64,000 nucleotides of DNA, taken from Dermatophilaceae bacterium (GTDB lineage Bacteria > Actinomycetota > Actinomycetes > Actinomycetales > Dermatophilaceae). Numbering within the stretch: the stretch's first letter is position 1; each line of letters opens with the position of its first letter. The translations under genes and the position numbers were made by a program. The notes below the pieces were generated by a model that saw only the letters and a list, made by a program, of their open reading frames with translations, was not told where the DNA came from and ran no database searches. This document shows, in pieces, positions 1-64,000 of the stretch. Location of the stretch: positions 1 through 64,000 of the forward strand of contig JBAOHD010000024.1 of NCBI GenBank assembly GCA_037046615.1, given 5' to 3'.

Positions 1-1
1 G

Positions 2-180
2 CGCACCGCGAAGCAGGCGCTCGGCATGCTCGTGCTCGTGAAGGAGACGCTCGGCGACGACTGGCTGACGCCCGAGCGCTTCCGGATCGGCGCCTCGTCG
101 CTGCTCAACGACCTCCTGATGCAGCTCGGCCGCCTCGAGCGCGGCGCCTACCCGTCCCCCGACGCCTACAGCCCGGCCTA
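2..180 (+). CDS. deoC: deoxyribose-phosphate aldolase, C-terminal fragment (window starts inside the gene)
   Basis: Frame-3 translation ...KQALGMLVLVKETLGDDWLTPERFRIGASSLLNDLLMQLGRLERGAY then stop at 178-180. This matches the DeoC C-terminus (RIGASS motif). An aldehyde dehydrogenase gene follows, as in deoC operons. Confidence 0.45.
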
Positions 181-195
181 GGCGAGGAGCCCGCC

Positions 196-1651
196 GATGA
201 GCGCGTTCGAGTACGCCCCCGCGCCCGAGAGCACGGCGATCGTGCGCCTCCGGCCCGCCTACGGGCTGTTCGTGGACGGCGCGCTTCGTCGACGGCGCTC
301 GACGGCGAGCGCCGCCCGACCGTGAACCCGGCCAGCGAGGAGCCGCTCGCCGAGGTCTGGCACGCCGGCCCCGCCGACGTCGACCGCGCCGTCGCGGCCG
401 CGCGGGCGGCCTTCCCCGCCTGGTCGCGCCTGCCGGGCGCCGAGCGCGGCAAGTACCTCTACCGCCTCGCCCGCCTCGTGCAGGAGCGCAGCCGCGAGCT
501 CGCCGTCGCTCGAGGCGCTCGACGGCGGCAAGCCGATCCAGCGAGGCGCGCGACGTCGACCTGCCGCTCGTCGCGGCGCACTTCTTCCACCACGCCGGCT
601 GGGCCGACAAGCTGCGCTACGCCGTGCCGGACGGCGACCCGCGGCCGCTCGGCGTCGTCGGCGCCGATGATCCCGTGGAACTTCCCGCTCCTGATGGCCG
701 CCTGGAAGCTCGCGCCCGGCGCTCGCGTGCGGCAACACCGTCGTCCTCAAGCCGGCGGAGACGACGCCGCTCACGGCGCTCCTCCTCGCGGAGATCGTCG
801 CAGGAGGCCGAGCTTCCCGCCCGGCGTCGTGAACATCGTCACGGGCGGTCCGGCAGACGGGCGCGGCGCTCGTCCAGCCACCCCGACGTCGACGAAGGTC
901 GCCTTCACGGGCTCGACCGCCGTCGGCAAGGAGATCGCAGCGGCCGATCGCGGGCACGGGCGTAGCGCCTCACCCTCGAGCTCGGCGGCAAGGCCGCGAA
1001 CATCGTCTTCGCCGACGCGCCGCTCGACCAGGCGGTCGAGGGCATCGTCAACGGCATCTACTTCAACCAGGGCCACGTCTGCTGCGCCGGCTCGCGCCTG
1101 CTCGTCGAGGAGAGCGGTCGCTCGACGAGGTCGTGCGCCGAGCTCGACGCGCCGCATGCCGCACGCTCCGCGTCGGCGACCCGCTCGACAAGAACACGGA
1201 CGTCGGCGCGATCAACTCGGCGGCGCAGCTCGCGCGCATCCGCGAGCTCGTCGCGGCGGGCGTGGAGGAGGGCGCGCGCGCTCCACCAGGCCGCCGTGCG
1301 ACCTGCCGGAGCGCGGCTTCTGGTTCCCGCCGACGTACTTCACGGAGCGTCGCGCCAGCGCACCGCATCGCCCGCGAGGAGATCTTCGGCCCCGTGCTCT
1401 CCGTGCTCACCTTCCGCACGCCGGACGAGGCGGTCGAGCTCGCGAACAACGACGCGCTACGGCCTCTCGGCGGGCGTCTGGACGGACAAGGGCGCGAAGG
1501 CCTTCGCGCTCGCGCGGCCGGCTGCGGGCTGGCGTGGTCTGGGCGAACACGTTCAACGTCTTCGACCCGTCGTCGCCGTTCGGCGGCATGCAGGGAGTCG
1601 GGCTACGGGCGCGAGGGCGGCCTCGCCGGGCTCAGGGAGTACCTGGCATGA
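196..1651 (+). CDS. NAD-dependent aldehyde dehydrogenase, broken by several frameshifts (pseudogene or assembly indels)
   Basis: ALDH segments lie in three different frames: [81 protein letters not shown]...[54 protein letters not shown] and [16 protein letters not shown]. There is also a short duplicated FVDGA segment near 270-300. Confidence 0.6.
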
Positions 1652-2547
1652 GCGGCGCGGACGGCGGCGCGGGCGCGGGGCGCCTCGACGTGCGCAAGAC
1701 CTGGAAGCTGCTGATCGGCGGCGCCTTCGTGCGCAGCGAGTCGGGGCGCGTGCTCGCGGTCGCCGGCGCGGACGGCGCGCACGTCGCGAACGTCGCACAG
1801 GCCTCCCGCAAGGACGCGCGAGACGCGGTGCGCGCGGCGCGGGCCGCGCAGCCCGGCTGGGCGGGCCGCACCGCCTACAACCGCGGGCAGATCCTCTACC
1901 GGCTCGCCGAGGTGCTCGAGGCGCGCACGGAGGAGCTCGCGGCGCGGATCGACGCGACGCGCGGGATCGGCCGCGAGGCCGCGCGCGTCGAGGTCGCCGC
2001 CGCCGTCGAGCATGCCGTGCACCACGCCGGCTGGACGGACAAGCTGCACGCGGTGCTCGGCGGGGTCGCGCCGGTCGCCGCGCCGTACTTCGCGGTCGTC
2101 ACCCCGGAGCCGGTCGGCGTCGTCGCCATCGCCTGCCCCGACGAGCCGTGCCTCGTCGGCGCCGTCGCGCTGCTCGCGCCCGTGCTCGCCGGCGGCAGCA
2201 CGGCCGTCCTGCTCGTCTCGGAGCGCCACCCGCTCGCGGCCTGCGACCTCGGCGAGTGCCTCGCGACGAGCGATGTCCCGGGCGGCGTCGCGAACGTCCT
2301 CACGGGCCTGCGCGCCGAGGTCGCGCCGGTGCTCGCCGCGCACGGCGACGTCGACGCGATCGTCGACGGCACGGGCGACGCCGCGCTCGGCGCCGAGCTC
2401 GAGCGCGCCGCGGCGACCACGGTCGCCCGCTACCGCGCCGTCGACCCGGCGACGCTCGCCGTCGGCGTCGACCCCGCCGCGCACGGCCTCGCCGCCTGCG
2501 CGCGGACGCTCGAGCTGAAGACCGCGTGGCACCCCGTGGGGCTCTAG
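1648..2547 (+). CDS. short aldehyde-dehydrogenase-family protein (~300 aa, N-terminal/NAD-binding half only)
   Basis: Intact ORF MSGADGG...[41 protein letters not shown]...GGVANVLTG with ALDH-like NAD-binding segments. No catalytic Cys region is visible. Confidence 0.45.
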
Positions 2548-2549
2548 CG

Positions 2550-3089
2550 GTGCACGACGAGCCCTGGGACGTGCGCGCGACGCGCGTCCTCCACGACACG
2601 GTCGTGCGCGTCGAGGAGCACGACGTCGTCACGCCGGACGGCCGCTCCTTCGCGTACCTGCTCCTGCGCACGCGCGGCTTCGTCAAGGTCGTGCCGGTCA
2701 CGGCGGCGGGCGAGATCGTCTTCGTGCACCAGTACCGCCACGCGTTCGGGCGCACGACGCTCGAGCTGCCCGCGGGCGGCATCGACCCCGGCGAGACGCC
2801 GGAGGACGCGGCCCGCCGGGAGCTCGCGGAGGAGGCGCTCCTGCGCGCCGAGGCGCTCGAGCCGCTCGGCGTGTTCGCGACGAGCCCGGGCCGCTCCGAC
2901 GAGGTCGGCCACATCTTCCTCGCGACGGGCTGCGTGCCCGCGCCCGACGCGGTCCAGCACGAGCCGACGGCGCCGCTCCACGTGCCCGTCGCCGAGGCCT
3001 ACGGGCTGATCGGCGCGGAGGTCACGGACGCGATGAGCGTCGTCGCCCTGATGCTCGCGCGGCCCCGCCTGCCCGGCGCGCCCGCGTGA
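2550..3089 (+). CDS. NUDIX hydrolase (ADP-ribose pyrophosphatase-like)
   Basis: GTG start immediately after the ALDH stop. Protein VHDEPWDV...[25 protein letters not shown] carries a Nudix box (GGx5Ex7REx2EE). Confidence 0.65.
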
Positions 3090-3118
3090 GCGACGGCGCG
3101 TAGTACGCTTCGTCCGCC

Positions 3119-3592
3119 GTGGAAGAAGCCGTCGTCTGGATCGTGATCGGCGTCCTCTGCCTGATCGCCGAGGCGCTCACCGTCGGGTTCGTGGCCGCGT
3201 ACTTCGGCGTCGGCGCGTTCGCCGCGGCGGCCGCCGCCTGGCTCGGCGCCCCGATCGGCGGCCAGCTCGCCGTCTTCGCGATCGTCTCGGTCGCCCTGCT
3301 CGCGTTCACCCGCCGCACGATGCTCGACGCCCTCCAGGGCAAGGACGAGCCGGTGCCCTCGAACGTCGACGTGATGCTCGGCAAGAGCGGCATCGTCACC
3401 ATCCCGATCTCGAACGACCTCTCGACGGGCCAGATCCGCGTCGGCACCGAGTTCTGGACGGCGCGCCTGCTCGGCGACGGCTCGGCCACGGTTCCGGCAG
3501 GCGCGAAGGTGGAGATCGTGGAGGTCAAGGGCGTGACCGCCCTCGTCCGGCTCCGCGAGGAGTCCGGGCACGCCGCCACGCACGGCGCCTGA
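3119..3592 (+). CDS. NfeD-family membrane protein (partner of stomatin/SPFH proteins)
   Basis: 157 aa with two N-terminal TM helices and a C-terminal beta domain ([21 protein letters not shown]). An SPFH gene lies downstream. Confidence 0.6.
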
Positions 3593-3623
3593 GCCTCGCC
3601 ACCGCCACCGCACCCGGAGCCCC

Positions 3624-4542
3624 ATGCCCCAGCTCGACCCCGATCCCAAGCTCGCCGCCTACGCGCACCCCGAGCGGCTCGTCACGACGGCCTGGCTCGC
3701 CGCGCACCTCGACGACCCGGACGTCGTCGATCGTCGAGTCGGACGAGGACGTGCTGCTCTACGACACCGGGCCACATCCCGGGCGCGGTCAAGGTCGACT
3801 GGCACGCCGACCTGAACGACCAGGTCGCGCGCGACTACGTCGACGCCGCCGGCTTCGCCGCGCTGATGCGCCGCGAAGGGCATCGCGCCGCGACCAGCAC
3901 CGTCGTCATCTACGGCGACAACATCAACTGGTGGGCCGCGTACGCGCTCTGGGTGTTCACCCTGTTCGGCCACGAGCGACGTGCGCGCTGCTCGACGGCG
4001 GCCGCGCGAAGTGGATCGCCGAGGGCCGCGCGCTCGACCACGCGACGTGCCCGCACGGACGCGCGAGCGACTACCCCGTGGTCGCCGCGCGACGACAGCC
4101 GCGATCCGCGCCTTCCGGGACGACGTGCTCGCCGCACGTGCGCGCGGGCGGCCGCTCGATCGACGTGCGCTCCCCCGGCGAGTACACCGGCGAGCTCACT
4201 GCACATGCCGGACTACCCGCAGGAGGGCGCGCTGCGCGGCGGCCACATCCCGGGCGCGGCGATCGATGCCGTGGGCGCAGGCGGCGAACGACGACGGCAC
4301 CTTCAAGACCGCCGCCGAGCTGCGCGCGATCTACGCGGGCGAGCTCGGCCTCGACGCCGGACGAGCCGATCGTCGCCTACTGCCGGATCGGCGAGCGCTC
4401 GAGCCACACCTGGTTCGTGCTCACGCACCTGCTCGGCTACCCGGACGTCCGCAACTACGACGGCTCGTGGGCGGAGTGGGGCAACAGCGTGCGCGTGCCG
4501 ATCGAGCGGCCGGGCCAGCCGGTGCGCCCCGCGGAGGCGTGA
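3624..4542 (+). CDS. thiosulfate sulfurtransferase (tandem rhodanese), frameshifted
   Basis: Rhodanese pieces lie in three frames: [96 protein letters not shown]. The last piece carries the active-site CRIGERS motif. Confidence 0.6.
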
Positions 4543-4965
4543 TGCGCGCAGGCGCTCTCCGAGATCGTCGAGGAGTTCGCGCGAGGCCGACCGGGAGGAG
4601 CGCGCTGCAGCTCCTGCTCGAGTTCGGCGAGCGCCTGCCGCCGCTGCCGCCGCGCCTCGCCGCCGCCGGCGAGGCCGCGCTCGAGCGGGTCGTCGAGTGC
4701 CAGTCGCCGCTCTTCCTCGCCGTCGAGGTCGGCGGCGAGGGCCGCGTGCGCGCTCTGGTTCGACGCGCCGCCCGAGGCGCCGACGACCCGCGGCTTCGCC
4801 GGGATCCTCCACGCGGGGCTCGACGGCGCCACCGTCGACGAGGTGCTGACGACGCCGGGCGAGCTGACGGCGGAGCTGCGCCTCGCCGAGGTCGTGTCGC
4901 CGCTCCGCATGCGGGGCATGGCGGCGATGCTGGCCCGCATCAAGCGCCTCGTCGCCGCGGGCTGA
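4542..4965 (+). CDS. sufE: SufE-like cysteine desulfuration protein, frameshifted
   Basis: [15 protein letters not shown]...[16 protein letters not shown] (SufE Cys motif) and a C-terminal piece [19 protein letters not shown], split over two frames. Sits next to rhodanese as in actinobacteria. Confidence 0.5.
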
Positions 4966-5044
4966 CGGCGCACCCGCCGAGCGGCGGGGCGCCGCGCGTT
5001 CGACTACGCTTCGCGCACCCGTCCGCGATTCGGGAGGACCATCC

Positions 5045-6017
5045 GTGAGTGTCGGACTGATCGTGGCGCTCGCCATCGTCGTGCTCGTGCTCGTGCTGGC
5101 GCTGCGCTACGTCCGCGTGGTGCGCCAGAGCACCACCCTCGTCGTCGAGCGCCTCGGCCGGTACTCGCGCACCCTCTCGCCCGGGCTCAACTTCCTGATC
5201 CCGTTCGTGGAGAGCGTCCGGCAGGAGATCGACATGCGCGAGCAGGTCGTCTCGTTCCCGCCGCAGCCCGTGATCACCGAGGACAACGTGACGATCTCCA
5301 TCGACACGGTCTTCTACTTCCAGGTCACGGACCCGTTCCGCGCCGTCTACGAGGTCGCGAACCTGCTCGTCGCGGTCGAGCAGCTGACGACGACCACGCT
5401 CCGCAACGTGATCGGCTCGCTCTCCCTCGAGGAGACGCTGACGAGCCGCGACAAGATCAACGCCGACCTCCGCGTCGTGCTCGACGAGGCGACGGAGCGC
5501 TGGGGCATCCGCGTCAGCCGCATCGAGCTGAAGTCGATCGACCCGCCGATGTCCATCCAGGAGGCGATGGAGAAGCAGATGCGGGCCGAGCGCGACAAGC
5601 GCGCGGCGATCCTCACGGCCGAGGGCGACAAGCAGTCCGCGGTGCTCACGGCCGAGGGCGAGCGGCAGGCCGCGATCCTGCGCGCCGAGGCCGAGCAGCA
5701 GCGCGGCGATCCTCCGCGCCGAGGGCGACAAGCAGGCGAAGATCCTGCGCGCCCAGGGCGACGCCGAGGCCGTGCGCCAGGTCTTCCACGCGATCCACGA
5801 GGGCGACCCGACGCCCGACCTGCTCACGTACAAGTACCTCGAGCAGCTGCCGCTGCTCGCGAACGGGCAGGCGACGAAGCTGCTGATGGTGCCGAGCGAC
5901 GCCGTGCAGGCGCTCGGCTCGATGGCCTCCCTCGGGGCGGCCTTCCAGACCGGGCAGGACGTGGCGGGCGGCGACGGGCGGCCGGCCGGCGGCCGCGGGC
6001 CGGGTGGCGCCGCGTGA
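5045..6017 (+). CDS. SPFH/band-7 (stomatin/HflC-like) protein, one frameshift near 5700
   Basis: [29 protein letters not shown]...[31 protein letters not shown]...[39 protein letters not shown], then [36 protein letters not shown] in another frame. Confidence 0.7.
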
Positions 6018-7809
6018 GCGCGATCGAGGCGGCGGGGCCGCGCGCGGAGGGCGTCCGCTGGGACTCTCGCCCGGATCGTCGCCGACGACGACGCGGCGCG
6101 CGGCGCTGCTCGACGACGCGCTGGCCGCGTCCGCGGCCTTCGCGGAGCGCTACCGCGGGCGCGTCGCGGAGCTCGATCGCGGAGCAGCTCGCAGCGGCGC
6201 TCGCCGAGCTCGGCGAGCTCGGCAACGCGCTCGGCGCGCGTCGGCTCGTACGCCGGCCTCGCGCGTTCCGTCGACGTGAACGACGTCGAGGCGCGCGACC
6301 TCGAGGCGGTCGTCGACCAGGGGCATGGTCGCCGCCGGCAACGCGCTGCGCTTCTTCGAGCTCGAGTGGATCGCGCTCGACGACGCCCGCGCCGAGGAGC
6401 TCCTGGCCGACGAGCGCCTCGCCGCGGACCGCCACCACCTCGCCGCCGAGCGCCGCTACCGGCCGCACCGGCTGAGCGAGCCCGAGGAGCGCATGCTCGC
6501 CGAGCGCGAGCCCGTCGTGCAGGCGTGGTCGAGCCTCTTCGACCAGACCGTCGCGAACGTCCGCACGACGTTCGACGACGGGCGCCGGGCGAGCGCCCGC
6601 ACACGGTCGAGGAGCTGCTCTCGTACGTGCACCGGCCCGCAGCGCGAGCTGCGCCTGCGCGCGCTCGACACGCTCTACGCCGCGCTCGAGCCGCAGACGC
6701 CGGTGCTCGCGAGCTGCTACGACGCGATCGTCGCCGACCGGCTCGTGCAGGACCGCCTGCGCGCCTACCCGGATCCCGCTCGCCGCGCGCCACCTCTCGA
6801 ACGAGCTCGAGCCGGCCGCGGTCGACGCGATGATGGCGGCGATCGAGGAGCGCTACGACATCGCGCAGCGCTGGTTCCGGCGCAAGGCGGAGCTGCTCGG
6901 CCTCGAGCGCCTCCACCTCGCCGACCAGTACGCGCCGCTCGACGCGGGCCGCGTCGTCTCGTACGCCGAGTCGCAGGGCCCTCGTGCGCGACGCCTTCGG
7001 CCGCTTCTCGCCCGAGGTGCGCGACCTCTGCGAGGCGTTCTTCGAGGAGCGCCGCGTCGACGCCGAGCCGCGGCCGGGCAAGCGCGGCGGCGCGTTCTGC
7101 GCGAGCGTCGCCCAGGACGCCTCCCCGTACGTGCTCCTGAACTACACGGACACGCTGCGCGACGTGATGACGATGGCCCACGAGCTCGGCCACGGCATGC
7201 ACTTCGCCTACTCCCGGGCGCAGACGCCGCACTCGTTCCACGCGCCGCTCGCCCTCTGCGAGGTGCCGAGCACGTTCGCCGAGCTGCTCGTCTTCGACCG
7301 CATGCTCGAGACCGAGGAGGACCCGGCGACGCGCGCCGCGCTCGTCCGCGGCGAGCTCGAGAGCGGCTTCGCCACCGTCTTCCGCCAGACGATGATGGTG
7401 CGCTACGAGCAGGACTCGTACGGCACGCGCGGCGGGCGGCCAGGCGCTCACGCCGGAGCGGCTCTCCGACTTCTGGCTCGATCGCAACCGGCGCTACTAC
7501 GGCGACTCGATGGAGCTGCCGGAGGGCTACCGGCTCGGCTGGTCGTACATCCCGCACTTCATCCACACGCGCTTCTACACGTACGCGTACGCGTTCGCGC
7601 ACCTCGCGAGCCTCGTCCTCTACGCCCTCTACCGCGACGAGGGCGCGTCGGCGTTCGTGCCGCGCTACCTGCAGCTGCTCCAGACGGGCGGCTCCGCCGC
7701 GCCGGGCGACCAGCTCGGCGCGTTCGGCATCGACCTCGCCGACGTCGGAACGTGGCGGCGCGGGCTCGACGAGATGGAGCGGATGCTCGACGCGGCGCTC
7801 GCCGGCTGA
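6004..7809 (+). CDS. pepF: M3-family oligoendopeptidase F (PepF), frameshifted
   Basis: HEXXH zinc motif in TMAHELGHGMHFAYS. N-terminal, middle and C-terminal PepF segments (FFELEWIALDDARAEELLADERL; MELPEGYRLGWSYIPHFIHTRFYTYAYAFAHL) lie in three frames. Confidence 0.65.
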
Positions 7810-7828
7810 CCGCCGGCGGGAGCGCGAG

Positions 7829-7911
7829 TGCCGAAGGCGGGAGTCGAACCCGCACGCCCTCTCGGGCGACCGATTTTGAGTCGGCCGCGTCTACCGTTCC
7901 GCCACTTCGGC
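7829..7911 (-). tRNA. tRNA-Leu (anticodon CAA)
   Basis: Reverse complement GCCGAAGTGGCGGAACGGTAGACGCGGCCGACTCAAAATCGGTCGCCCGAGAGGGCGTGCGGGTTCGACTCCCGCCTTCGGCA. It has a 7-bp acceptor stem, an anticodon loop CTCAAAA, a long variable arm and a TTCGA T-loop. Confidence 0.8.
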
Positions 7912-7934
7912 GCCGTCCGAGCATACACGCGCAC

Positions 7935-9170
7935 GCCCCGGCGGCGCGCGGCGGCGCTCGTGCTCGCGGTCGCGCTCGCCGCGGTCGCGCTCGCGGCCTG
8001 CGACGACGAGCGGCGCGACGCGGCGAGCGGGGCGACGGAGCCGCGCGGCGGACGCCCCGCGCCGCGGACCGTCGCTCGCGCCGCTGCTGCGCGGCCCGCG
8101 CGCGGCGCTCGGCGCGAGCGCGGCTCGCCGCCGTGCGCGCGGTCGTCGACGCGCGCGGCGGACGGCGCGGCCGCCGCCGGCTCGTCGTCGAGCGGCGTCG
8201 ACATCGGCCGCGCGCGGCTGCACGTCGGCACGGCCGCGGAGGCCGCCGCGCGACGCCGCGCACCGCCGCCGTGGTCGGCGGGGCTCGGACGAGCGCCTGC
8301 GCCGACGGCGATCGCGCGCCGTCGACGGCGCCGAGCGGGGCTCGCCCTGCTCGCCGACGGACGCGGGCGGCGCGCCCGCGCCGGACGCGGGTCTGCCTGC
8401 GCCTGACACCGACGGCGGGCTGGAGCGATGGCGCGTCGCCGCCGTCGCGCCTCGCCGCCGACCTCGGCGCCGAGCGCGGGTGGCGGTGCTCGAGGACGGC
8501 AGCGCGGGAGGCCGTCGGCCTCGGCGACGCCGTCGCCCGCGGCCGCGGCGGCGGCGGGCGTCGCGGTGGCGGAGCGCGTGCGGGTCGACGCGACCGGGAC
8601 GCCGCGAGCGACGCTGCGTCCGCGGCCTCGGCCGGACGTGGACGCCGTGATCCTGCTGGCGGCGCCCGCGCCCGCCGGGCTCGCCGCGCTCGCGGGCCGG
8701 GCGGCGGCGGGCGGCGCCGGGGCCGCCGCGGTGCCGGTGATCGCGCCGGACGCGTACGCGATCGGCGGCTGCTCGCAGCACTCCCGGCGCCGGCAGCTCG
8801 CGGGCGTCGCGCGTGCTCTTCCCGGGCGTCGCGCCGCCCGTCGTGCTCCGCGGCCGCGGCGGCGGCGCCGCGGCGCCTCGCGGAGGCGCTCGCGGCGGAG
8901 GACGCGAGCCTCGAGCCGCTGGCGGCGGAGGCGGCGGCGGCGGCGCAGGCCGTGCTCGCCGCACCCTCCGACGAGACGCCGACGGCAGCCGCGGCGGCGC
9001 GTGCGCGCGGCCGCGGGCGGGGTGCGCCTCGACGCCGGCACGCGCGGCGACGGGCGCCGCGCGTCGGCGTTCGCGGCCGGACGGCAGCGCGGCCGTGCGC
9101 ACCCTCTCCGTGCTCGTCGCCCGCCCGCCGCGGCTCGGCGTCGAGCGCACGCTCGTGCTGCCGTAGCGTC
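7935..9170 (+). CDS. putative lipoprotein, possibly a type-I periplasmic binding protein; heavily frameshifted and uncertain
   Basis: Lipobox LVLAVALAAVALAAC near the start. Later segment VDAVILLAAPAPAGLAALAGRAAAGGAGAAAVPVIAPDAYAIGGC. No continuous frame survives. Confidence 0.25.
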
Positions 9171-9276
9171 GCCCGCTCCGGCGCGGCGCGCCGCGGAGCG
9201 CTGGTAGCCTCCGTCCGGCCTGGCGAGGCCGGCGGTCAGCTCGCCGCCGCGCCGCTCGCGCGCCGCCCCCTCCTCG

Positions 9277-10030
9277 ATGCCCGCTCCCTCCGCCGAGACG
9301 ACCCTCCTGCGCGTCGCGCTGCCGGACCGCCCGGGCGCGCTCGCGAGCCTCGCGCGCTGCCTCGGCGCCTGCGGCGTCGACATCCAGGGCGTCGAGGTCG
9401 TCGGCCACGAGGACGGCGTCGCGATCGACGACATCCTCGTCCACGGCGGCGATCTCGAGCCGGGCGCTCGGCGCCCTCGACGACGACGTGCGGGTGCTCG
9501 GCCGCGTGGCGGGCGCGAGCCTGCCCGACCCGGGCCTCCTGATGGCGGAGGCGCTCGGGGCGGTGCTCGCCGCGCCGACCGTGGAGGCCGCGCGGGCCGC
9601 GATCGTGCGCGCCGCGCGGTGCGGATCGGGGCCGGCTCCGGCGGCGGCGCTGCTCCGGCGCTCGGGGGCCGACGACCGCCTCTCGCCTCGACCGGCGCGA
9701 CCGTGCCCGGGCCTCGGGGACGTCCCCGCCTACCAGCCGTCGCTCGCGCGGCGCGCGCTCCGCGCGCGGGCCGGCCGCTCGCCGCCGCCGCGGCCGACGA
9801 GGGCTGGGCGCCGCCCGCCTGGCGCGAGGCGCTGCCGGGACGCCAGGTCGCCGCGGTGCCGGTCGTCGTCGGCGACGACGCCGCCTGCTCGTCGTGCGCG
9901 ACGCGGACGTCCCGTTCGTCGACGCCGAGGTCGACCGTCTCGCGGCGCTCCTGCGGGTCGTCCTCTCTCCCCGAACGGGTAGGCGATCTGCGGGCGGCCA
10001 CCCGGGCGGTCCGACGCCGACCGCGAAGTG
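9277..10030 (+). CDS. ACT-domain-containing protein (hypothetical), frameshifted
   Basis: MPAPSAETTLLRVALPDRPGALASLARCLGACGVDIQGVEVVGHEDGVAIDDILV has an ACT-like fold signature. Confidence 0.3.
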
Positions 10031-11463
10031 GGTCTAGGGTGCGACGGTGATCGCCCCCCGCGTCGTCGTCGCCGGCCTCGCGCGCGCCCTCGCTGCGCCG
10101 ACCGCCACCGCCGCGGTGCCGACGGCGCCCGCGCGCGTCTGGTACCGTGCCGAGCTCGCCTGTCCTAGGCGAGACGCTCCGTGCGAGCGGCGCGGGCGAC
10201 CAGCAGACGACCGCCGCCACGCGGCTCGCGCTCGTCCTGCGGAGCTGGCGCCCCGCATGCCGTTCACGCGCACCGTGCACGCCACGGCCGTGCGCCCGCG
10301 CCGCGGCGCCGCTGAGTCAGCGGCGCGCGCACGGCGGCTCGGCTACCGGGAGCAGCTCGCGTTCGCCGCGCCGCTCGCCGGCGCGTTCGGCGCGACGGGC
10401 GTCGTCGAGCTCGTCGAGACGCGCCGCGCGTACCGCCCGGGGGAGGGCGTGCCGTGCGCCACGCTCGTCAGCGACGGCGTCGCAGGGCCGAGGCCGCTCG
10501 AGTGGCATCGACCGGCCGCGGCGGCTTCGTCGGCTGGGGCCTCGCGCTCACGGGCGCGCGCCGCGCCGAGATGCGCGGCTCGCGCCTGGCGCGACGTGCC
10601 CCGCCCGCGTCGGCCGCGCGGGCATCGTCGACGTCGCAGGGACGCCGGTGCCGGCGGACGTGCTCGACGTGCCGGGCCTGCGCGTCCGGCGGGGCTGCCG
10701 CGCGGCGCCGCGCTGCGCGCCCGACGCCGCGCGGCTCGTCGTGGGGCGGCGCTTCGGACGGCCGCTCCGCTTCGTCTGGGACGGCCGCCAGCGGCGCGGC
10801 GTCCTCACCGTGCTCTCGCAGCACGTCCAGATCGCGCTCGTCCCGTGCGGCAGCGGGCGGCGACCTGGCCGCTGCGGCTGAGCCGAGCTCGCGCACGGGG
10901 GCGTGGGCTCACGCGCCGTCGCGGGCGCGCAGCGCGCCGTCGAGCGGCGCGAGGCTCTCGCGTCGTCCGCGTCGTCGAACGCGTCGGTGCGCTCCTGGCC
11001 GCCGAGCGACGAGGACGAGCGCGGTAGCTCGTAGCAGTCGGCGCAGCCCGTCTCGCCCGACGGCGGCGCGGGCAGGGGATCGGGCACGAGCCCGGCGAGC
11101 TCCGCGAGACCGGCCTCGTCCGAGACCGACCACCGTGCGGGCAGGCTGGCCCGTGAAGCCGCCCGACCACGTCAGCGACGCGCGCTCGAGCGGCGCGGCG
11201 ACGAGCGTGGTGCCGGTCGAGGAGCCGGTGCCGACGTCGCTCGTGGCGACCCCGCCGAAGCCGAGGAAGGCGAGGAGCGCTGCGAGGATCGCGATCATGG
11301 ACATCGGACGCACTGTAGCCCGCGGGGGTTCCCGCGTCGCGGCCGAGGGGTCGCCTGCTACGCTGTCGCGCGCTGGCAGTGCTGCTGGCACGACGCGATG
11401 CGGCGTCCCCGTCCGGGGAGTCGTGCGCCCTCCCGAGGGGGACGCAGGACAAGGAGGACGGCG

Positions 11464-12798
11464 TGGACAAGCGCGACTTGATCGAGAAGTGCCGCGAGCA
11501 CAACGTGCGCTTCGTGCGGCTCCAGTTCACCGAGCTCTACGGGCACATGAAGAACGTCTCGATCCCGGTCGAGGAGCTCGAGAAGGCGCTGGACAACGAG
11601 CTCATGTTCGACGGCTCGTCGATCCGCGGCTACAAGCGGATCGAGCAGTCGGACATGTACTTCCGCCCCGATCCGGACACCTTCACGATCCTGCCGTGGC
11701 GCCACCGCGCCTCGGGCGCCGTCGCCCGCCTCATCTGCGACGTCGCCGACCCCGACGGCACGCCGTTCGCGGGCGACCCGCGCGTCGCGCTCAAGAAGGT
11801 CGTCGCGCAGGCGGCCGAGCTCGGCTACACAGATGGGCGTCGGCCCGGAGGCGGAGTTCTTCCTCTTCAAGCGCGACGCGCTCGGGCGCCCCGACGGTGG
11901 ACACGCACGACAAGGCCGGCTACTTCGACGTGGCGCCGTCCGACCTCGGCGAGAACACGCGGCGCGACATCGAGGACACGCTGCACGAGATGGGCTTCGC
12001 GCTCGAGGCATCGCACCACGAGGTCGCGATCGGCCAGCACGAGATCGACTTCCGGCACGCCGAGCCCGATCACGACTGCGCCGACAACCTCGTCACGTTC
12101 CGCTGGGTCGTGCGCGTGATCGCAGCCGAGCACGGCATGCACGCGACGTTCATGCCGAAGCCGATCTTCGGCGAGAACGGCTCGGGCATGCACGTCAACC
12201 AGTCGCTCGCGACGGGACGGCGAGAACGCGTTCTACGACCCGAGCGGCGAGCTCGAGCTGTCCGGCCCGGCGTACGGCTACATCGCCGGCCTGCTCGACG
12301 CACGTGAAGGCGATCACCGGCGATCGCGAACCCGACCGTCAACTCGTACAAGCGGCTCGTGCCGGGCTACGAGGCGCCGGTCTACATCGCGTGGTCGCCG
12401 CGGCAACCGCTCCGCCGCGATCCGCATCCCGGCGAAGCGCGGCCGCTCGACCCGCGTCGAGCTGCGCACCCCGGACCCGACGGCGAACCCGTACCTCGCC
12501 TTCGCGGTCATGCTCGCGGCCGGCCTCGACGGCATCAAGAACGGCCTCACGCCGCCGGCGCCGGTCAACAAGAACATCTACCACCTCTCCGGACGAGGAG
12601 CAGCAGGAGCTCGGCATCGACTCCCTGCCGCACAACCTCGAGGATGCGCTCGACGCGCTCGAGGCGGACGAGGTGATCCGCGACGCCCTCGGCGAGCACA
12701 TCTTCGAGGCGTTCCTCGCCGAGAAGCGCGCGGAGTGGAACGACTACCGCAGCGACCGTGCACCAGTGGGAGCTCGACCGCTACATGGAGTCGTTCTA
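11464..12798 (+). CDS. glnA: glutamine synthetase type I, many frameshifts
   Basis: [74 protein letters not shown], then [77 protein letters not shown] and [20 protein letters not shown] spread over three frames. Confidence 0.75.
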
Positions 12799-12911
12799 GC
12801 GTCTCCGTCGACGGGCTCCGGGCGCGAGGGCGCGATCGGCCTCGCCGGGGGCGGCCGCCCGGCCGCCCCGCGGCGCCTCCCGGCCCGGGCCCGCCGCTAC
12901 GGTGGCGCGCC

Positions 12912-13700
12912 ATGCGCGCGCTGATCGTCCTCAGCGCATCCCGGAGCCGCGCTCGTTCAACGGGCGCCTCGCCGCGCGCCGCGGCGGACGAGCTCGCGGC
13001 GGCGCGGCTACGAGGTCGACCTCGACGACCTCCACGCGGAGGGCTTCGACCCGGTCGAGGCCGCCCCGCTTCTTCCCGGGGCGCGCCCCGGGGCCGTTCG
13101 ACCCGCAGGCCGAGCAGCGGCGGGCGCACTGGGAGGCGGGGACGACGGCGCCGGACGTGGCGCGGGAGCTCGAGCGCCTGCGCGCGGCCGACCTCGTCGT
13201 CTTCCAGTTCCCGATGTGGTGGCACGCCCAGCCCGGGATGCTCAAGGGCTGGCTCGACCGGGTGCTCGCCTACGGCGGCGCTCTTCACGGGCAGCGGAGC
13301 GCTACGACCGCGGGATGCTGCGCGGGCGGCGCGCGCTCCTCTCCGTGACGGCGGGCGCGCCCGAGAGCGACGTTCCTGCACGACGGCAGGAGCGGCGAGC
13401 TCGACCTCCTGCTCTGGCCGATGGCGTACTCGCTCTTCTACGTCGGGCTCGACGTGCTGCCGCACCAGGTCGCGTACGAGATCTCCGGGTGCGATCAGCC
13501 TACGGGGAGGCGGACGGCACGGCGCGCCGCGACCGCTACGAGGCCGGCGCTGCGCGCGCGCCTGCGCAGCGCGGCGACCGATCCCGTGCTGCCGTTCAAC
13601 GGCTGGGGCGACCTCGGGCCGGACGGGCGCCTGCGCCCCGGCGTGCGCGGGACGAGCGCGTTCGTGCGCGACGACCCGGCCCGCATCCCCGGCCGCTGAC
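12912..13700 (+). CDS. NAD(P)H:quinone oxidoreductase-like flavodoxin-fold protein, frameshifted
   Basis: MRALIVLSA..., [57 protein letters not shown]. Confidence 0.45.
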
Positions 13701-13805
13701 CGGAGCCGGCGCTCGGGGCCGCTGCTACGCTCCCGTCCAGACCGGGCCCCCGGCCGCGTGCTCGTGCGCGCAGCGCTGGTACCCAGGTGACGACCAGGAG
13801 GTCAC

Positions 13806-14076
13806 ATGGCGCTCACGGGCGAGAAGAAGCGCGAGATCATCGAGAAGCACGGCAAGGGCCCGGAGGACACGGGCTCGCCGGAGGTGCAGGTGGCGCTCCT
13901 CACGCTTCCGCATCAACGAGCTCACCGAGCACATGCGGGCGCACAAGCACGACCACCACTCGCGGCGCGGGCTGCTCATGCTCGTCGGCCGGCGCCGGCG
14001 GCTGCTGCAGTACCTGCAGCGCGAGGACGTCGAGCGCTACCGCGCGCTGATCAAGGAGCTCGGCCTCCGGCGCTGA
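13806..14076 (+). CDS. rpsO: 30S ribosomal protein S15, one frameshift near 13905
   Basis: [33 protein letters not shown] followed in another frame by [55 protein letters not shown]. pnp follows, matching rpsO-pnp synteny. Confidence 0.8.
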
Positions 14077-14196
14077 GACCTCCCCGTACGGGGATGACGA
14101 AGACCTGAGCGAGCCCGGCGCGACGTGCGCCGGGACCGCACGAACGCGGATGTCCGGGCGGTTGGTGCGCGCGGACGAGAAGGGACGTAGGACCAC

Positions 14197-16784
14197 ATGA
14201 CAGGTACGACCGTGGCCGGCGAGATCACCGTCGAGGTGGAGGTCGGCGCGGGACGCGTCACGCTCTCCTGCCGGGCGCCTCGCCAAGCAGGCCGACGGCG
14301 CGGTGCTGGCGCGGAGCGGGCGACACCGTCGTCCTCGCGACGGCCGTCGGGCCGGCACGGAGGCGCGCGAGGGGACCGGACTTCTTCCCGCTGACGGTCG
14401 ACATCGAGGAGAAGATGTACGCCGCGGGCAAGATCCCCGGCGGCTTCTTCAAGCGCGAGGGCAAGGCGTCCGAGAAGGCGACCCTGAACGCGCGGATGAT
14501 CGACCGCCCGATCCGGCCGCTCTGGCCGAAGGGCTTCCGGAACGAGATCCAGGTGATCGGGACCGTGCTGTCGGCCGACATGGTCAACGCGCACGACATC
14601 CTCTGCGATCAACGGCGCCTCCGCGGCGCTCGACGATCTCCTCGCTGCCGTTCCTCGGCCCGGTCGGCGCCGTGCGCATCGCGACTGCTCGACGGCGAGC
14701 TCGTCGTCAACCCGGCGCTGCGAGGAGCATGAGGATCTCCGACCTCGACCTGATCGTCGTGCGGCACGCAGGACGCGATCACGATGGTCGAGGCCGGCGC
14801 GCGACGAGGTGCCGGAGGAGCACGCTGCTCGAGGCGCTCGCGCTCGCGCACGCCGAGATCCGACGCTCTGCGACGCGCAGCATCGACCTGGCGCGCCAGG
14901 CCGGCAAGCCGAAGTGGGTCGACGCCGGCGGTGAACGCCGAGATGGCGTCGACGCACGGCGACCGCATCGACGGCGCTCGTCGCCGAGCGCGGCCTCGCC
15001 GGGCGTGGCCGCCGGCGGTCGCCGAGGCGATCGCCGCCGAGCTGCCGCCGCGATCGCGACGGACGTCGGCCGAGGCCGACGATGGTGCGCGCGCACGCAG
15101 GTCGCGCTGGGCCGCTCGCAGTTCCTCGCCGACGAGCGCCGCGCCGCGGCCGTCAAGGCCGTCGTCGCAGACGCAGTTCGGCGACGCGATCCGCGGCGCT
15201 CTCGGACGCCGAGCAGGACTCGAAGGAGCTGAAGTCGCGCGAAGCGCGACGCGCTGGTCGAGACAGATCCTCGCGACGATCCGCGCTGCCGTTCCCGGGC
15301 GGCGCGCGCGGACGGCGGCATCGACGCCGCCACGCGCACGGCGCGATCAAGAAGGCGGTCGACGTCGGTCTACAAGGACCATCGTCCGCACGAAGATCGC
15401 GGTCGAGAAGCGCCGCCCCGACGGCCGCTGCGCGAGACGGAGATCCGCCCGATCTGGTGCGAGGTCGGCGGCGATCGCCGCGCACGCACGGCTCGGCGGT
15501 CTTCACGCGCGGCCAGACGCAGGTGCTGACGGTCGTGCACGCTCGGCACGACCGACGGAGGAGCAGCGCCTCGACGACCTGTCGCTCGAGACCGCGCAAG
15601 CGCTACATCCACCACTACAACTTCCCGCCCTTCTCGCGTGGGCGAGGCGCGGCTGCATGCGCGGCCCGAAGCCGCCGCGACATCGGCCACGGCGCGCTCG
15701 CCGAGCGCGCGCTGCTGCGCGGTGATCCCGTCGACGCCGAGGACTTCCCGTACACGATCCGCGCTCGTCTCCGAGATCGCTCGAGTCGAACGGCTCGTCC
15801 TCGATGGCCTCGCGTCTGCGGCTCGACCCTGGCGCTGATGGACGCCGGCGTGCCGATCACGGCGCCCGTCGCCGGCATCGCGATGGGCCTCGATCAAGGA
15901 GGGCGACTCGACTACGTCGATCCTCACCGACATCCAGGGCGCCGAGGACCACCTCGGCGACATGGACTTCAAGGTCGCCGGCACCGCCGAGGGCGTCACC
16001 GCCCTCCAGATGGACATCAAGATCACGCGGCGTCACGCAGGAGATCATGCGGGACGCGCTCGCGCAGGCGCCGCGACGCGCGCGTCAGCATCCTCGGCAC
16101 CATGGCCGAGACGATCGCCGAGCCGCGGGCCGAGCTCGCCGGCGCCACGCGCCGCGCGTGCTCGACGAGTCAAGATCAACGCCGGAGCAGATCGGCCTGC
16201 TGATCGGCAAGGGCGGCGAGACGATCCGCGGCGCTCGAGGAGGAGTACGACGTCCAGATCGACATCGAGGAGGACGGCACCGATCCGCGTCTACGCCGCG
16301 TCGGGCGACGGCGCCGACGCGCTGCATCAGGAGCACATCGACGCAGATGATGAACGCCCCGTGCAGGCCGGGCGACGTCGTACACGCGAGAAGCGCGTCG
16401 TGAAGATCGACCGACTTCGGCGCCTTCGTCGAGCTGCAGCAAGGGCACGGACGGCGCTGCTCCACGTCTCCGACGTGATCGCCCCGGCCGCGTCGCGCAT
16501 CCAGTCGACGGACCAGGTGCTCGACCGGAACGACGTCGTCTCGACGTCGAGGTGCAGTCGAGGTCGACCAGGACCGCGGCCGCATCGCGCTCAAGCTGAT
16601 CGCGAAGCACGAGGACGGCGTCGAGATCACGCCGGAGGCGCTCGGCGAGCGCTACGTCGAGGCCCATCCCGACGCCGCCCGCGGCGGCCGCCCCGACGGC
16701 GACCGCCCCGACCGCGGCCCGCGCGAGGGCGGCGACGGCGGCGGCCGGCGCAGGCGGGGCCCGCGCCCCGGCGGCGACCGCTGA
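14197..16784 (+). CDS. pnp: polynucleotide phosphorylase (PNPase), many frameshifts
   Basis: [104 protein letters not shown], a KH motif [14 protein letters not shown] and an S1-domain tail. It sits directly downstream of rpsO. Confidence 0.8.
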
Positions 16785-16860
16785 GCCGCTCGTCGTCTCG
16801 AGCGAGGCGAAGGAGCGAGGGCCGGGGGAGACCCCGGCCCTCGCGCGTTCCAGGCGTCGC

Positions 16861-17080
16861 GTGCCGCGTGGAGTACACTCGCGGGCCGTGGCAGACGACC
16901 CGCGCGCGGCGCCGATCGGCGTGTTCGACTCCGGCGTCGGCGGGCTCTCGGTGCTGCGCGAGCTGCGCCGGCTCCTGCCGCACGAGGACGTCGTCTACGT
17001 CGCCGACCACGCCTACGTGCCGTACGGGCGGCGCGACGCCAACGAGATCGTCGCGCGCAGCGAGGCGATCGCGGCGTCGT
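16861..17080 (+). CDS. murI: glutamate racemase, 5' fragment only (gene cut at the block A/B junction)
   Basis: [72 protein letters not shown] carries the VFDSGVGG MurI signature. Homology stops at ~17075. Confidence 0.6.
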
Positions 17081-18056
17081 CGCCGTGCTCCTGGCCGCCC
17101 TCCTCGACCCGATCAAGCAGGTACTGCGCCGCCGGCTCAAGCCCGCAGCCGCGGCGGGAGTGACGGTCGTGGCGACCATTGCTGCCATCTCGCTGCTGCT
17201 GTTCCTCATCGGGAGTCAGATCACGGGCGGTTTCTCGGAGATGGCCGGGCAGGTGGGCCAGGGCCTCGATCAGATCCGAGCGTGGGTCCGCACCACCTTC
17301 AAGATCACCGACAGCGAGTTCGCCCGCTACCTCGACGAGGCCAAGGCCGCGCTGTCATCGAGCGATGGGCTGCGTGGGTCGCTGACCAAGGCCGGCCTCG
17401 GCGCGACCCACGTCATCGCCGGCACATTCATCAGCCTCTTCGCCCTGTTCTTCTTCCTCTACGAGGGCGACCGCATCTGGGGCTGGGTCGTGCGGCTCTT
17501 CCCGCGCGACGCTCGGGCCAAGGTCGCCTCATCAGGTGAGGTGGCGTGGCGGCAGCTCACGGCTTTCACCCGCGCCACGCTCCTCGTGGCTCTCGTGGAC
17601 GCCGCTGGCATCACCATCGTCGCGCTCGTGCTCCGGGTGCCCTTTGCGCTGGCCATCGGTGCGCTCGTCTTCCTCGGGGCGTTCATCCCCATCGTCGGCG
17701 CGCTCATGAGCGGGCTGGTGGCCGTCCTCATCGCTCTCGTCGCCCACGGCCCCGTCGTCGCGTTGCTCATGTTGGCCGGCGTCATCGCGGTGCAACAGCT
17801 CGAATCCCACGTGCTCCAGCCCTTCCTGCTGGGCCGGGCCGTCGCCGTCCATCCCCTGGCGGTGATCCTTGTGATCGCCGCCGGAGTGGTCGTGGCCGGC
17901 ATCGTCGGAGCGCTCGTGGCGGTGCCGATCGCCGCCGTCCTCAACGGAGTGGGCAAACACCTGGCCGGCCATGATGCGCCGGCCCTGCCAGCAGCACCGC
18001 ACCCTCCCGCCTCGTCGGATCCGGGCGAGTCAGGTCCAGCGGCCGCAGCGACCTAG
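17080..18056 (+). CDS. AI-2E family (PerM/TqsA-like) transporter, 3' portion only; the N-terminus is missing at the junction
   Basis: 323 aa with multiple TM helices: ...[70 protein letters not shown]. No frameshifts. The in-frame upstream sequence runs straight into the murI fragment. Confidence 0.65.
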
Positions 18057-19177: not shown

Positions 19178-19204
19178 CGCTCCACGGTATGGAGGCAGGC
19201 GCCT

Positions 19205-19880
19205 AGGCGGTCGGACCTCGGTCGGTGTGTCGCGGATGAGGCTGGTGTGACGGTTGGGATTCGTCCCATCGAGTGATCGTGCGGCGGCCGTCGCAGTCCT
19301 CTGTCGTCAGAGCAAAGGTGCGGTGATCACACCATCGGCCCTCGATGTGCATATACCGCTGCCGGACTCCTTCGTCCCTCATCCGCAGGTGCGCGACAAC
19401 CGCGAGGGAAGCCTCGTTTTCGGGCCGCACGTTGACCTCGACCCGGTGCAAACCCATCGGCCCGAAGGCATAGTCACACAGCTCGGCCAGTGCCCGCGTC
19501 GTCACGCCCTGCCCGGCGAACCGCGGACCGACCCAATAGCCCGCCGCCGGCTGACAGCAGCAGATCCCCGGGTGATCCCGAAGAGATGGACCTGACCGGC
19601 AAGGTGTCCGTCCACCTGGATCGCAAAGGGCAAGGTCGTGCCCGACCTCGCCTCATCGTTCATCGCCCGGACATACCCCGCGAAACCCACCCGGTTGCCG
19701 ACCCCATCAGGGGGCGTCGGCTCCCACCGGGCGAGGTAGTCCAGGCTCTCGCGGCGCAGGGCCTCCCACCCGCCCCGGTCGCGCCGGCCGAGCGGTCGCA
19801 GGACGATCCCCGGCGCACGGCCGTCGCTCACGACGAGGCTCACCGGCCATCGGTGCCCCACGTCAGCCAGCCTGATCATG
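19205..19880 (-). CDS. rimJ: GNAT N-acetyltransferase (RimJ-like), one frameshift near 19500
   Basis: MIRLADVGHRWPVSLVVSDGRAPGIVLRPLGRRDRGGWEALRRESLDYLARWEP... then, in another frame, LHRVEVNVRPENEASLAVVAHLRMRDEGVRQRYMHIEGRWCDHRTFALT. Confidence 0.6.
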
Positions 19881-20378
19881 ATCACCGCCGCCACGGAGCT
19901 GGTCGACCACATGGTCGACCACGGGGCGCAGCACCGACAGGGCGTCCGCGACCCCTCCCCGGGAGCCAGGCAGGTTGACGACGAGAGTCCGCCCGCTGAT
20001 CCCTGCCAACCCACGCGTGATCGACGCGAGCGCCAAACCGCGGCTGATCCCGACATGACGCACGAGCTCTGGTATGCCGGGTATCTCCCGCTCGAGGAAC
20101 GGTCGGGTCTGCTCCGGGGTCACGTCGCCGGGCGCAACCCCGGTGCCCCCGGTCGTGATGACGACCGCCGGGGACGAGGCGAGGGCCGCGCCGATCGCGT
20201 GACCGACCTCCGGCCCGTCGGGGACGACGATCTGCGGCGGCACGGCATACCCCCACTCCTGGAGGGTCGCGACGAGGACGGGACCCGTGCGGTCCTCGTA
20301 GGTCCCGTCAGAAGCGCGCGTGGACGCGACGATGACGACCGCGCGCGGCGCCGCCGCACCCCCGAGCGATCCCGTCAT
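19863..20378 (-). CDS. moaB: molybdenum cofactor biosynthesis protein MoaB/MogA family
   Basis: MTGSLGG...AVVIVASTRASDGTYEDRTGPVLV...VITTGGTGVAPGDVTPEQT. Its ATG overlaps the moaC stop by 4 nt (ATGA). An alternative ATG lies at 20399. Confidence 0.8.
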   Translation of the reverse strand: MTGSLGGAAAPRAVVIVASTRASDGTYEDRTGPVLVATLQEWGYAVPPQIVVPDGPEVGHAIGAALASSPAVVITTGGTGVAPGDVTPEQTRPFLEREIPGIPELVRHVGISRGLALASITRGLAGISGRTLVVNLPGSRGGVADALSVLRPVVDHVVDQLRGGGDHDQAG

Positions 20379-62504: not shown

Positions 62505-62650
62505 GCATACGCCTCCGGCCTCGAGATTTCGGTCCAGAATGCCGTCAGCCCCTCGCTGAAGCTTTGGCTCGCCATATAGAGGATCGGTCCCACCAGCAGG
62601 ACGAGGAAGTAGAGCCAGACGATCCCGATCAACAACCAACGCATGCACAT
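62505..62650 (-). CDS. cysW: sulfate ABC transporter permease CysW, N-terminal ~50 aa only (cut at the block B/C junction)
   Basis: MCMRWLLIGIVWLYFLVLLVGPILYMASQSFSEGLTAFWTEISRPEAYA matches the CysW N-terminus. Downstream of codon ~50 the sequence is unrelated and GC-rich. Confidence 0.5.
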
Positions 62651-62692
62651 GCTCCCATCTCACCCATGCCCGGCTCTGCCGGATTCATCGTC

Positions 62693-63574
62693 TCAGATTG
62701 CCGCGGTCGGCACCACGGACTCGGAGTCGCGAGGATCCTTCTGCCGGGTCCATTGAAACAATCTTGGCAACCGTTCCCCGGGACGACGGGTCAACCGTTC
62801 CAAAAGCAAGAGAACCAGAAAGGAGATCAGTAAAATCAGCACCGAGACGGACGTGGCCGCCTGGGGGTTGTAGCTCTCGATCTCCCCATACACATAGACG
62901 GAAGCGACCTGCGTCTTCATCGGAATATTGCCCGCCACGATCACGATGGACCCGAATTCGCCGAGCGCCCGCACGAAGGTGAGGAAGACGCCGGTCAGCA
63001 GACCGGGCAGGATCGACGGGACCGTGACTTTCCAGAAGGTGATCCAGGGGCTGGCTCCCAACGTGAAGGCTGCTTCTTCCTGATCGCGTTCGAGGCCCAT
63101 CAGCACCGGTTGCAGAGAGCGGATGGTAAACGGCATGGTCACAAACACCATCGCCAGGATGATCCCGGGCTGGTTGTAGAGCACCGCCATCCCGCCCTGT
63201 TGAAGCCAGGTGCCCAGCAGGCTGGTCGGTCCATAGATCGCGGCGATCATGAGGCCGGCAACCAGGGTCGGAATGGCAAAGGGCAAATCAACGAGCGCGT
63301 TGAGGAGCCACCGGCCCGGGAATTCGTAGCGTACCAGCACCAGCGCCGACAAGGTGCCGAACAGGGCATTGATGGCGGTCGCAATGGCGGCGGTTTCCAC
63401 GGTGAGCCACAGCGCTGCCGCAGCTTGAGGAGCCGACAGATCCTGGATGAACCGGTCCCATCCGGCCGCGAACGATTGATGCGCCAGCGCCGCGAGGGGC
63501 AAGAAAATCAGCACGAGCACATAGCCGACTGCGGCAGATCGTAAGGCCAGGCTGAGCAAGAGATGGGCGGTCAT
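62693..63574 (-). CDS. cysT: sulfate ABC transporter permease CysT
   Basis: 293 aa, 6 TM, ...LVDLPFAIPTLVAGLMIAAIYGPTSLLG...EAAFTLGASPWITFWKVTVPSILPGLLTGVFLTFVRALGEFGSIVIVAGNIP... GC and codon usage are lower than in blocks A and B. Confidence 0.8.
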   Translation of the reverse strand: MTAHLLLSLALRSAAVGYVLVLIFLPLAALAHQSFAAGWDRFIQDLSAPQAAAALWLTVETAAIATAINALFGTLSALVLVRYEFPGRWLLNALVDLPFAIPTLVAGLMIAAIYGPTSLLGTWLQQGGMAVLYNQPGIILAMVFVTMPFTIRSLQPVLMGLERDQEEAAFTLGASPWITFWKVTVPSILPGLLTGVFLTFVRALGEFGSIVIVAGNIPMKTQVASVYVYGEIESYNPQAATSVSVLILLISFLVLLLLERLTRRPGERLPRLFQWTRQKDPRDSESVVPTAAI

Positions 63575-63668
63575 ACGAGCGTTCTACCTTACTGGTTACG
63601 GTCACGCCTGTTCGACAGGCACCATTCCTATCGTTGGTCGTGATGATTCTTCAGGAATCATTTTCTCA

Positions 63669-64000
63669 GGAGGCTGCTATTTCTTTGTCACGTCTTCGAC
63701 GATCTTCGTCCAGAGACCCTGGCGCGCCGAACAGCTTGTTGCTCACCTGATCCCAGCCGCCGAGCTCTGCAATCGTGAAGAGTCGAGCCGGTTGCGGGAG
63801 CGTGGCGGCCGGGGTACCGGCACTGCTTGTCCAACGGGCGAAAGCCCAATTCAACGAAGGCAGCCTGTGCCTCCGGTCCGTGGAGAAACGCGACGAACGC
63901 GTCTGCGAGATCCCTGGCCTTGTGGCGGTCGGCATAGGTGTCGACGACCGCCGCCGGGTTTTCGATCCAGACGGTTTCGGCCGGCACGATGATTTCATAG
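63669..64000 (-). CDS. sbp: sulfate-binding protein Sbp/CysP, C-terminal part (frameshifted; the gene runs off the window)
   Basis: PAETVWIENPAAVVDTYADRHKA..DLADAFVAFLHGPEAQAAFVELGFRP and FTIAELGGWDQVSNKLFG...QGLWTKIVEDVTKK* lie in two frames, immediately upstream of cysT. Confidence 0.55.

Follow-up and report, generated by a model that had tools for sequence, protein, structure and literature searches.

A probable inter-genome misassembly between murI and an AI-2E transporter gene inside a public Dermatophilaceae MAG contig

Near position 17,075 of the window (the whole stretch of 64,000 nucleotides that was analysed), the beginning of a glutamate racemase gene, murI, runs directly into an AI-2E family transporter gene that has lost its own beginning. 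The question raised by this locus, here called junction 1, is whether the two genes were brought together by recombination, by the concatenation of two contigs, or by a false join inside a single contig. A preliminary description of the sequence had taken the point to be a contig boundary or chimeric join and not a biological insertion. The coordinates of the features discussed below are collected in Table 1.

Table 1. Segments, genes and breakpoint in the window
Feature	Coordinates	Strand	Extent or basis
Left segment, Gaiellales-like (Thermoleophilia) DNA, low-accuracy consensus	1-17,074		Pfam, blastn against L087, GC3
pnp (PNPase) of the left organism	14,197-16,785	+	Three-frame translation; roughly 45 frameshifts by hand count
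murI (glutamate racemase), 5′ fragment	16,888-17,074	+	First 61 of 267 codons, then out of frame to TGA at 17,161-17,163
Breakpoint interval, junction 1	17,072-17,075		L087 match stops at 17,072; L081-L086 matches begin at 17,075
AI-2E family transporter gene, 3′ 87%	17,075-18,056	+	Last base of codon 50 to stop; PF01594
Middle segment, Dermatophilaceae chromosome (Ca. Phosphoribacter-like), 45.4 kb	17,075-62,508		97-100% identity to native contigs
Third segment, DNA of a wastewater organism, about 58-60% GC	62,509-64,000		Identity to L093-L097

Two truncated genes and the breakpoint

The open reading frame that carries the murI fragment (16,861-17,163) aligns with PDB glutamate racemases at its residues 14-71 and matches TIGR00067 over profile positions 1-50 of 251, with 62.1 bits against a cut-off of 146.65. 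A full-length MurI has about 250-270 amino acids and reaches that cut-off, and the fragment does neither. The homology runs from a GTG at about 16,888 to about 17,072, on which PDB, TIGR00067 and the MurI of the MAG L087 (GCA_964269475.1) agree and which bears out the end near 17,075 given in the preliminary description. In L087, murI is intact (267 aa); 17,072 corresponds to its codon 62, and both the 61 residues of the fragment and the last 70 bases before 17,072 are identical to it. There, the gene runs for 206 codons more and is followed by EamA and an M16 peptidase; neither these codons nor these two genes are found in the window. A homology search with the fragment (64 aa) returned partial proteins only, of at most 112 aa and at most 71% identical to it, and was taxonomically uninformative.

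On the other side of the junction, the AI-2E frame matches PF01594 with 165 bits (gathering threshold 34.3) over profile positions 26-320 of 327. It had been described as the 3′ half of a transporter gene, which understates it, as 326 of 376 codons are present. The further statement that it begins mid-protein and lacks the N-terminal transmembrane helices is right in its first part: the PF01594 match starts directly after murI, and the product lacks residues 1-49 of the native protein (376 aa). As to the helices, by our own reading of the sequence the lost part comprises the first hydrophobic stretch and the beginning of the second. Nor is the fusion in frame, as had been supposed; the codons of murI start at 1 mod 3 and those of AI-2E at 0 mod 3, and the murI frame continues out of frame across the AI-2E DNA to its stop codon (Table 1).

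The complete 376-aa transporter is encoded on six short-read wastewater-metagenome contigs (L081-L086). In all of them a TerC gene lies before it and, as in the window, SepX/GlpR lies after it on the opposite strand. In L081, the sole contig long enough, the order continues with GNAT, MoCF, MoaC and MoeA. The six contigs are 96.9-100% identical to the window and all six alignments start at exactly 17,075, while the 356-1,935 bases upstream, which hold the 49 missing AI-2E codons and TerC, gave no match in the window. Similarity to more distant relatives (Danish activated-sludge MAGs, Ca. Phosphoribacter hodrii, Terracoccus and a Dermatophilaceae MAG) starts at 17,058-17,080, and the 10 kb upstream in these relatives is likewise absent from the window. 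The amino acid identity of AI-2E to the Danish activated-sludge MAGs and Ca. Phosphoribacter hodrii is 74-87%.

Both colinearities stop within the same 3 bases. Two bases (GG, 17,073-17,074) can be attributed to neither flank, and the join is clean, with 0-2 unassigned bases and without adapter remnant; this fits a ligation chimera as well as an assembler join and does not discriminate between them. As had been noted earlier, no gene is intact across the point, murI and AI-2E both being incomplete. A Pfam domain search of the open reading frames neighbouring the join brought up neither an integrase nor a transposase domain, its surroundings contain no direct or inverted repeats of note, and no tRNA target lies there, the nearest tRNAs being at 7,828 and 33,281. 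With mobility genes, flanking repeats and a tRNA target absent, and with frameshifted core genes as cargo, the DNA at 17,075 does not have the make-up of a genomic island. The 11-nt TCGTCGTCGCC at the right edge of the junction recurs 30-50 nt further downstream in murI of L087. Microhomology through this repeat was considered as a possible cause of the join, for which the position of the string does not account.

Lineage, composition and accuracy of the segments

The left segment carries, in order, genes for an aldehyde dehydrogenase, NUDIX, NfeD, rhodanese/SufE, Band_7, PepF, tRNA-Leu, GlnA, a flavodoxin-like protein, S15 and PNPase, and then the murI fragment. L087 holds Band_7, PepF, several small open reading frames, GlnA, flavodoxin-like, S15, PNPase, MurI, EamA and M16 peptidase, which is the order of the window from Band_7 through MurI. 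Since pnp and murI are neighbours there too, their adjacency is native to the left organism. By blastn, window positions 5,000-17,072 matched positions 886-12,799 of L087 with 90.6% identity and 666 mismatches; strict scoring was used, as lax gap costs and uncorrected tblastn gave low-complexity, high-GC noise.

The preliminary description had suggested a taxonomic search of each side and a comparison of tetranucleotide frequencies, and both set the flanks apart. The PNPase peptides switch frame every 5-70 codons in the three-frame translation, and the query was therefore stitched together by hand from its in-frame pieces. Its top match was the PNPase of L087. The best named matches of the stitched PNPase were Gaiella occulta, Gaiella sp. 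and Gaiellaceae MAGs (E about 1e-237); the identity of about 58-60%, on which the order-level label rests, tentatively suggests a Gaiellales-like left organism. The right side was assigned to Dermatophilaceae and Ca. Phosphoribacter. Gaiella (class Thermoleophilia) and Dermatophilaceae (class Actinomycetes) belong to different classes of Actinomycetota. Tetranucleotide profiles correlate at 0.91 within the left side and 0.60-0.84 within the right, and at 0.43-0.60 across the join. The change of overall GC, reported as about 77% to about 69%, was measured as 75.4% on the left against 69.9% in the Dermatophilaceae segment, and the GC3 of in-frame genes is 97-99% on the left and 83-89% in the Dermatophilaceae segment.

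The two flanks also differ in their accuracy. The upstream genes are frameshifted, as had been observed: Pfam matches are scattered over three frames and every gene examined in 5,000-17,072 is broken, including rpsO, pnp and glnA. Against L087, 333 indels were counted in 12 kb (about 28 per kb), 309 of them of a length not divisible by three; these counts are upper bounds, as the PNPase of L087 itself has out-of-frame segments relative to Gaiella occulta, and part of the 333 could be errors of L087 or natural differences. One-base insertions in the window (199) exceed one-base deletions (60) by 3.3 to 1, and the indels are unevenly distributed, from 2 to 64 per kb. Short-read contigs of the left organism gave a closer comparison: L098 (Logan run SRR28161545) differs from window positions 1,594-3,049 by no mismatch and one G inserted in the window, and between L099 and 3,012-3,872 there are 4 mismatches and two single bases that the window has in excess. 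Immediately right of the join, 1,689 bases of the window agree fully with L085 (100% identity), and in the next 4 kb the only indel errors are two one-base insertions. The indel rate thus differs about 60-fold between the flanks. From the near absence of substitutions, the many single-base insertions and the intact codon bias it was concluded that the left segment is an under-polished single-molecule consensus. Pseudogene decay of the left genes was ruled out by this sequencing-error signature, the GC3 of 97-99% and the 0-4 substitutions per kb.

Several local irregularities were recorded as well. The two insertions on the right, at 19,547-19,562, were seen relative to five independent native contigs, in which the gene is intact, and split a 224-aa GNAT gene (19,203-20,056, minus strand) into two open reading frames; the middle segment therefore has errors of the left type, at a far lower rate. 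Positions 8,000-11,000 have 80-85% GC, weak codon periodicity and the highest indel density of the left side (35-64 per kb), and this extreme GC may be partly inflated by error, the inserted bases being mostly G or C. An additional junction was considered in the aldehyde dehydrogenase region at about 2,450-2,600 and rejected, as a short aldehyde-dehydrogenase-like gene (1,648-2,547, MEI2827515.1) is followed there by NUDIX (2,550-3,089, MEI2827516.1), both of them deposited proteins; NfeD (3,119-3,592) is deposited as MEI2827517.1. An extra G in a G run at 1,746, relative to L098, alters the 5′ end of the aldehyde-dehydrogenase-like gene, so that the N-terminus of MEI2827515.1 (299 aa) is probably wrong; the native gene is called at 265 aa. 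Local frameshifts are also carried by L087 at its positions 10,001-12,511, and split genes by L015; both are other public long-read MAGs.

The middle segment, whose consensus is of high accuracy, is 97-100% identical to 10 independent short-read wastewater contigs. The habitat of the native contigs is wastewater, several of them coming from PRJEB8087, a study of the resistome of wastewater treatment plants (PMC4598724). Native contigs of the left and right types co-occur in sequencing run SRR28161545.

A further change of lineage occurs near the right end of the window. The Dermatophilaceae segment stops right at a ACGGCATAC site at 62,508/62,509, near 62,520 the GC content changes from about 0.71 to about 0.58, and the final 1,492 bases are 98.4-99.3% identical to L093-L097, a match that sets in at exactly 62,509. 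The GC content of these loci, which represent a sulfate-type ABC transporter locus, is 57.6%. The third segment contains one sulfate-type ABC permease gene in full, together with a CysW-like permease gene cut after about 45 codons. The third organism is common in wastewater, and its identical CysT protein is listed by the gene index in 93 blocks of the collection. This site is a further chimeric join in mid-gene, here with a third lineage.

The RCGGCATAC motif of the Dermatophilaceae segment

The preliminary description had remarked that the 9-mer RCGGCATAC appears downstream of the join, and this was confirmed. There are 69 copies in the window against 0.68 expected, 34 on the plus strand and 35 on the minus strand. 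They span 18,277-62,510, in the Dermatophilaceae segment only, and lie about 650 bp apart on average; left of the join there is none, whereas the density on the right would predict 25.9 there (P about 5e-12). No consensus extending beyond the 9-mer was found among the sites of the window.

The motif is dense (0.4-1.5 per kb) in loci of Ca. Phosphoribacter, Knoellia, Terracoccus and Lapillicoccus (Dermatophilaceae/Intrasporangiaceae), and was also noted in loci L001-L011, L015 and L029. Loci of Nocardioides, Micromonospora, Kineococcus and Gaiellales-like organisms almost lack it, and L087 and L088 have none. On comparing the window with single relatives, it was found that 11 of 14 sites were kept in place in L015, 10 of 14 in L003, 7 of 9 in L002 and 5 of 8 in L005, with the DNA around the conserved sites being only 70-80% identical. 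Because the sites stay in place while their surroundings diverge to this extent, the pattern suggests selection on a DNA site, which might be a signal resembling an uptake sequence or one for protein binding. No description of RCGGCATAC was found in the literature searched, where the 9-mer brought up only Illumina adapter listings. What surrounds its copies in the window does not correspond to that adapter. The motif is of more interest than the junction itself.

Origin of the join and comparison with known systems

Proteins from both sides of junction 1, namely MEI2827515-517 on the left and AI-2E (MEI2827531), SepX/GlpR (532), MoaC (536), MoeA (537) and a K+/H+ antiporter (540) on the right, belong to a single NCBI contig of 68,031 bp and one accession run. 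The record is labelled 'MAG: Dermatophilaceae bacterium' and has the locus-tag prefix V9F04. The flanks are thus not in separate records, and the join lies inside one; the chimera is therefore internal to the deposited contig and not a product of concatenation, and the part of the preliminary description that spoke of a contig boundary or of concatenated contigs does not hold. PGAP called a complete 323-aa AI-2E protein, MEI2827531.1, from an internal GTG at 17,085 (ORF 17,085-18,056), which was deposited on this contig as 'MAG: AI-2E family transporter [Dermatophilaceae bacterium]', not as partial at an edge. It is 100% identical to residues 54-376 of MEI2827461.1 (376 aa). SepX/GlpR likewise has two accessions, MEI2827460.1 and MEI2827532.1, and MEI2827460.1 shares with the full-length MEI2827461.1 a contig no longer than 8,836 bp. 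From the proximity of the accessions and the identical naming, we infer that the same MAG also holds an intact AI-2E locus on another contig.

The other part of the preliminary description, that of a chimeric join and not a biological insertion, has been upheld. The flanks are of different lineage, each is colinear with a native, uninterrupted locus, and the two colinearities stop together at the same point. We regard junction 1 as an inter-genome misassembly inside a public MAG contig, with a probability of about 0.93. The contig consists of a 45.4-kb Dermatophilaceae core with at least 17 kb of Gaiellales-like DNA on its left and DNA of a third organism on its right, 1.5 kb of it in the window. 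False joins of this kind could arise in long-read or hybrid assembly or in contig extension, and their likeliest cause would be a chimeric long read, or a few of them, joining contig ends of very low depth. The left organism was presumably of low abundance, and its consensus may have stayed near-raw and insertion-rich, patched by short reads only where these existed. The cleanest left parts (1.6-3.9 kb) also exist as small short-read contigs, which fits such patchwise correction. Annotation then called the decapitated AI-2E complete and labelled Gaiellales-like proteins as Dermatophilaceae.

If the contigs of a bin had been concatenated, with 17,074/17,075 as the boundary between two of them, the genes cut on both sides and the abrupt change of composition would be expected, and a 61-base pattern across the junction had no match in the genome and metagenome contig collections; as both lack the deposited contig, this result weighs for neither side. 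This is nevertheless very improbable in view of the single contig and accession run that hold the proteins of both flanks, and of an AI-2E coding sequence deposited as complete, with M at the internal GTG, and not as 5′-partial. Real recombination or horizontal transfer, in which the AI-2E gene of a Dermatophilaceae cell would have taken up 17 kb or more of Gaiellales-like chromosome before the acquired genes decayed, could draw on the contiguity of the sequence in the deposited contig and on the occurrence of both organisms in one sample. It is, however, extremely improbable. Integrase, transposase, att-like repeat and tRNA target are all absent at the join; the cargo is made up of housekeeping genes (rpsO, pnp, glnA and murI); and the intact locus is present in six independent assemblies and apparently in the same MAG too. 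Decay is also at odds with about 28 indels per kb, mostly one-base insertions, in DNA that has kept a GC3 of 97-99%, and the 0-4 substitutions per kb relative to short-read contigs of the same sample are a sequencing-error signature. Moreover, a second such join, with a third lineage, lies 45 kb away. A genuine inter-class recombinant present in some cells, in which the indels would be noise of low-depth sequencing laid over a real join, is given next to no probability.

A variant of the misassembly explanation, and one compatible with it, is that the join does not stem from a chimeric read but was made after assembly, by merging, scaffolding, gap-closing or the combination of long- and short-read assemblies. 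The two joins in one contig, with two different foreign lineages, speak for it, as do the redundant contigs of the same MAG that cover the junction region, but there is neither N spacer nor adapter nor shared repeat on which a merger could have acted, and the variant appears rather doubtful.

There is no biology to be learned from junction 1 itself; its value lies in database hygiene. A GenBank MAG labelled Dermatophilaceae holds a contig of three lineages, and MEI2827515-517 are among the mislabelled Gaiellales-like proteins. Records of this kind can mimic horizontal transfer, gene fusion or gene truncation, place proteins under the wrong taxon in databases and inflate pseudogene counts. A cheap recipe that needs no reads consists of exact-protein look-ups, which lead to independent native contigs, and of seeing where the colinearity with these stops.

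Among known systems, the inter-genome chimeric contigs of MAGs, which are the target of GUNC (PMC8201837), share with the present case the blocks of different lineage, the genes cut at block boundaries and the label of the bin on foreign genes. The present contig differs from them in the indel rates of its flanks, about 60-fold apart, in the presence of three lineages within 68 kb and in breakpoints that independent native contigs place to within 3 bases. Genes truncated at the ends of draft contigs are similar in that murI and AI-2E stop and start mid-gene with the remainder absent from the window; here, however, the cut ends abut inside one contig and the annotation carries no partial flag. 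In a genomic island, too, GC, codon usage and oligonucleotide composition would change abruptly at a sharp boundary, whereas junction 1 is bordered by core genes with indels of the sequencing type, without mobility genes, and the intact target locus is present in the population.
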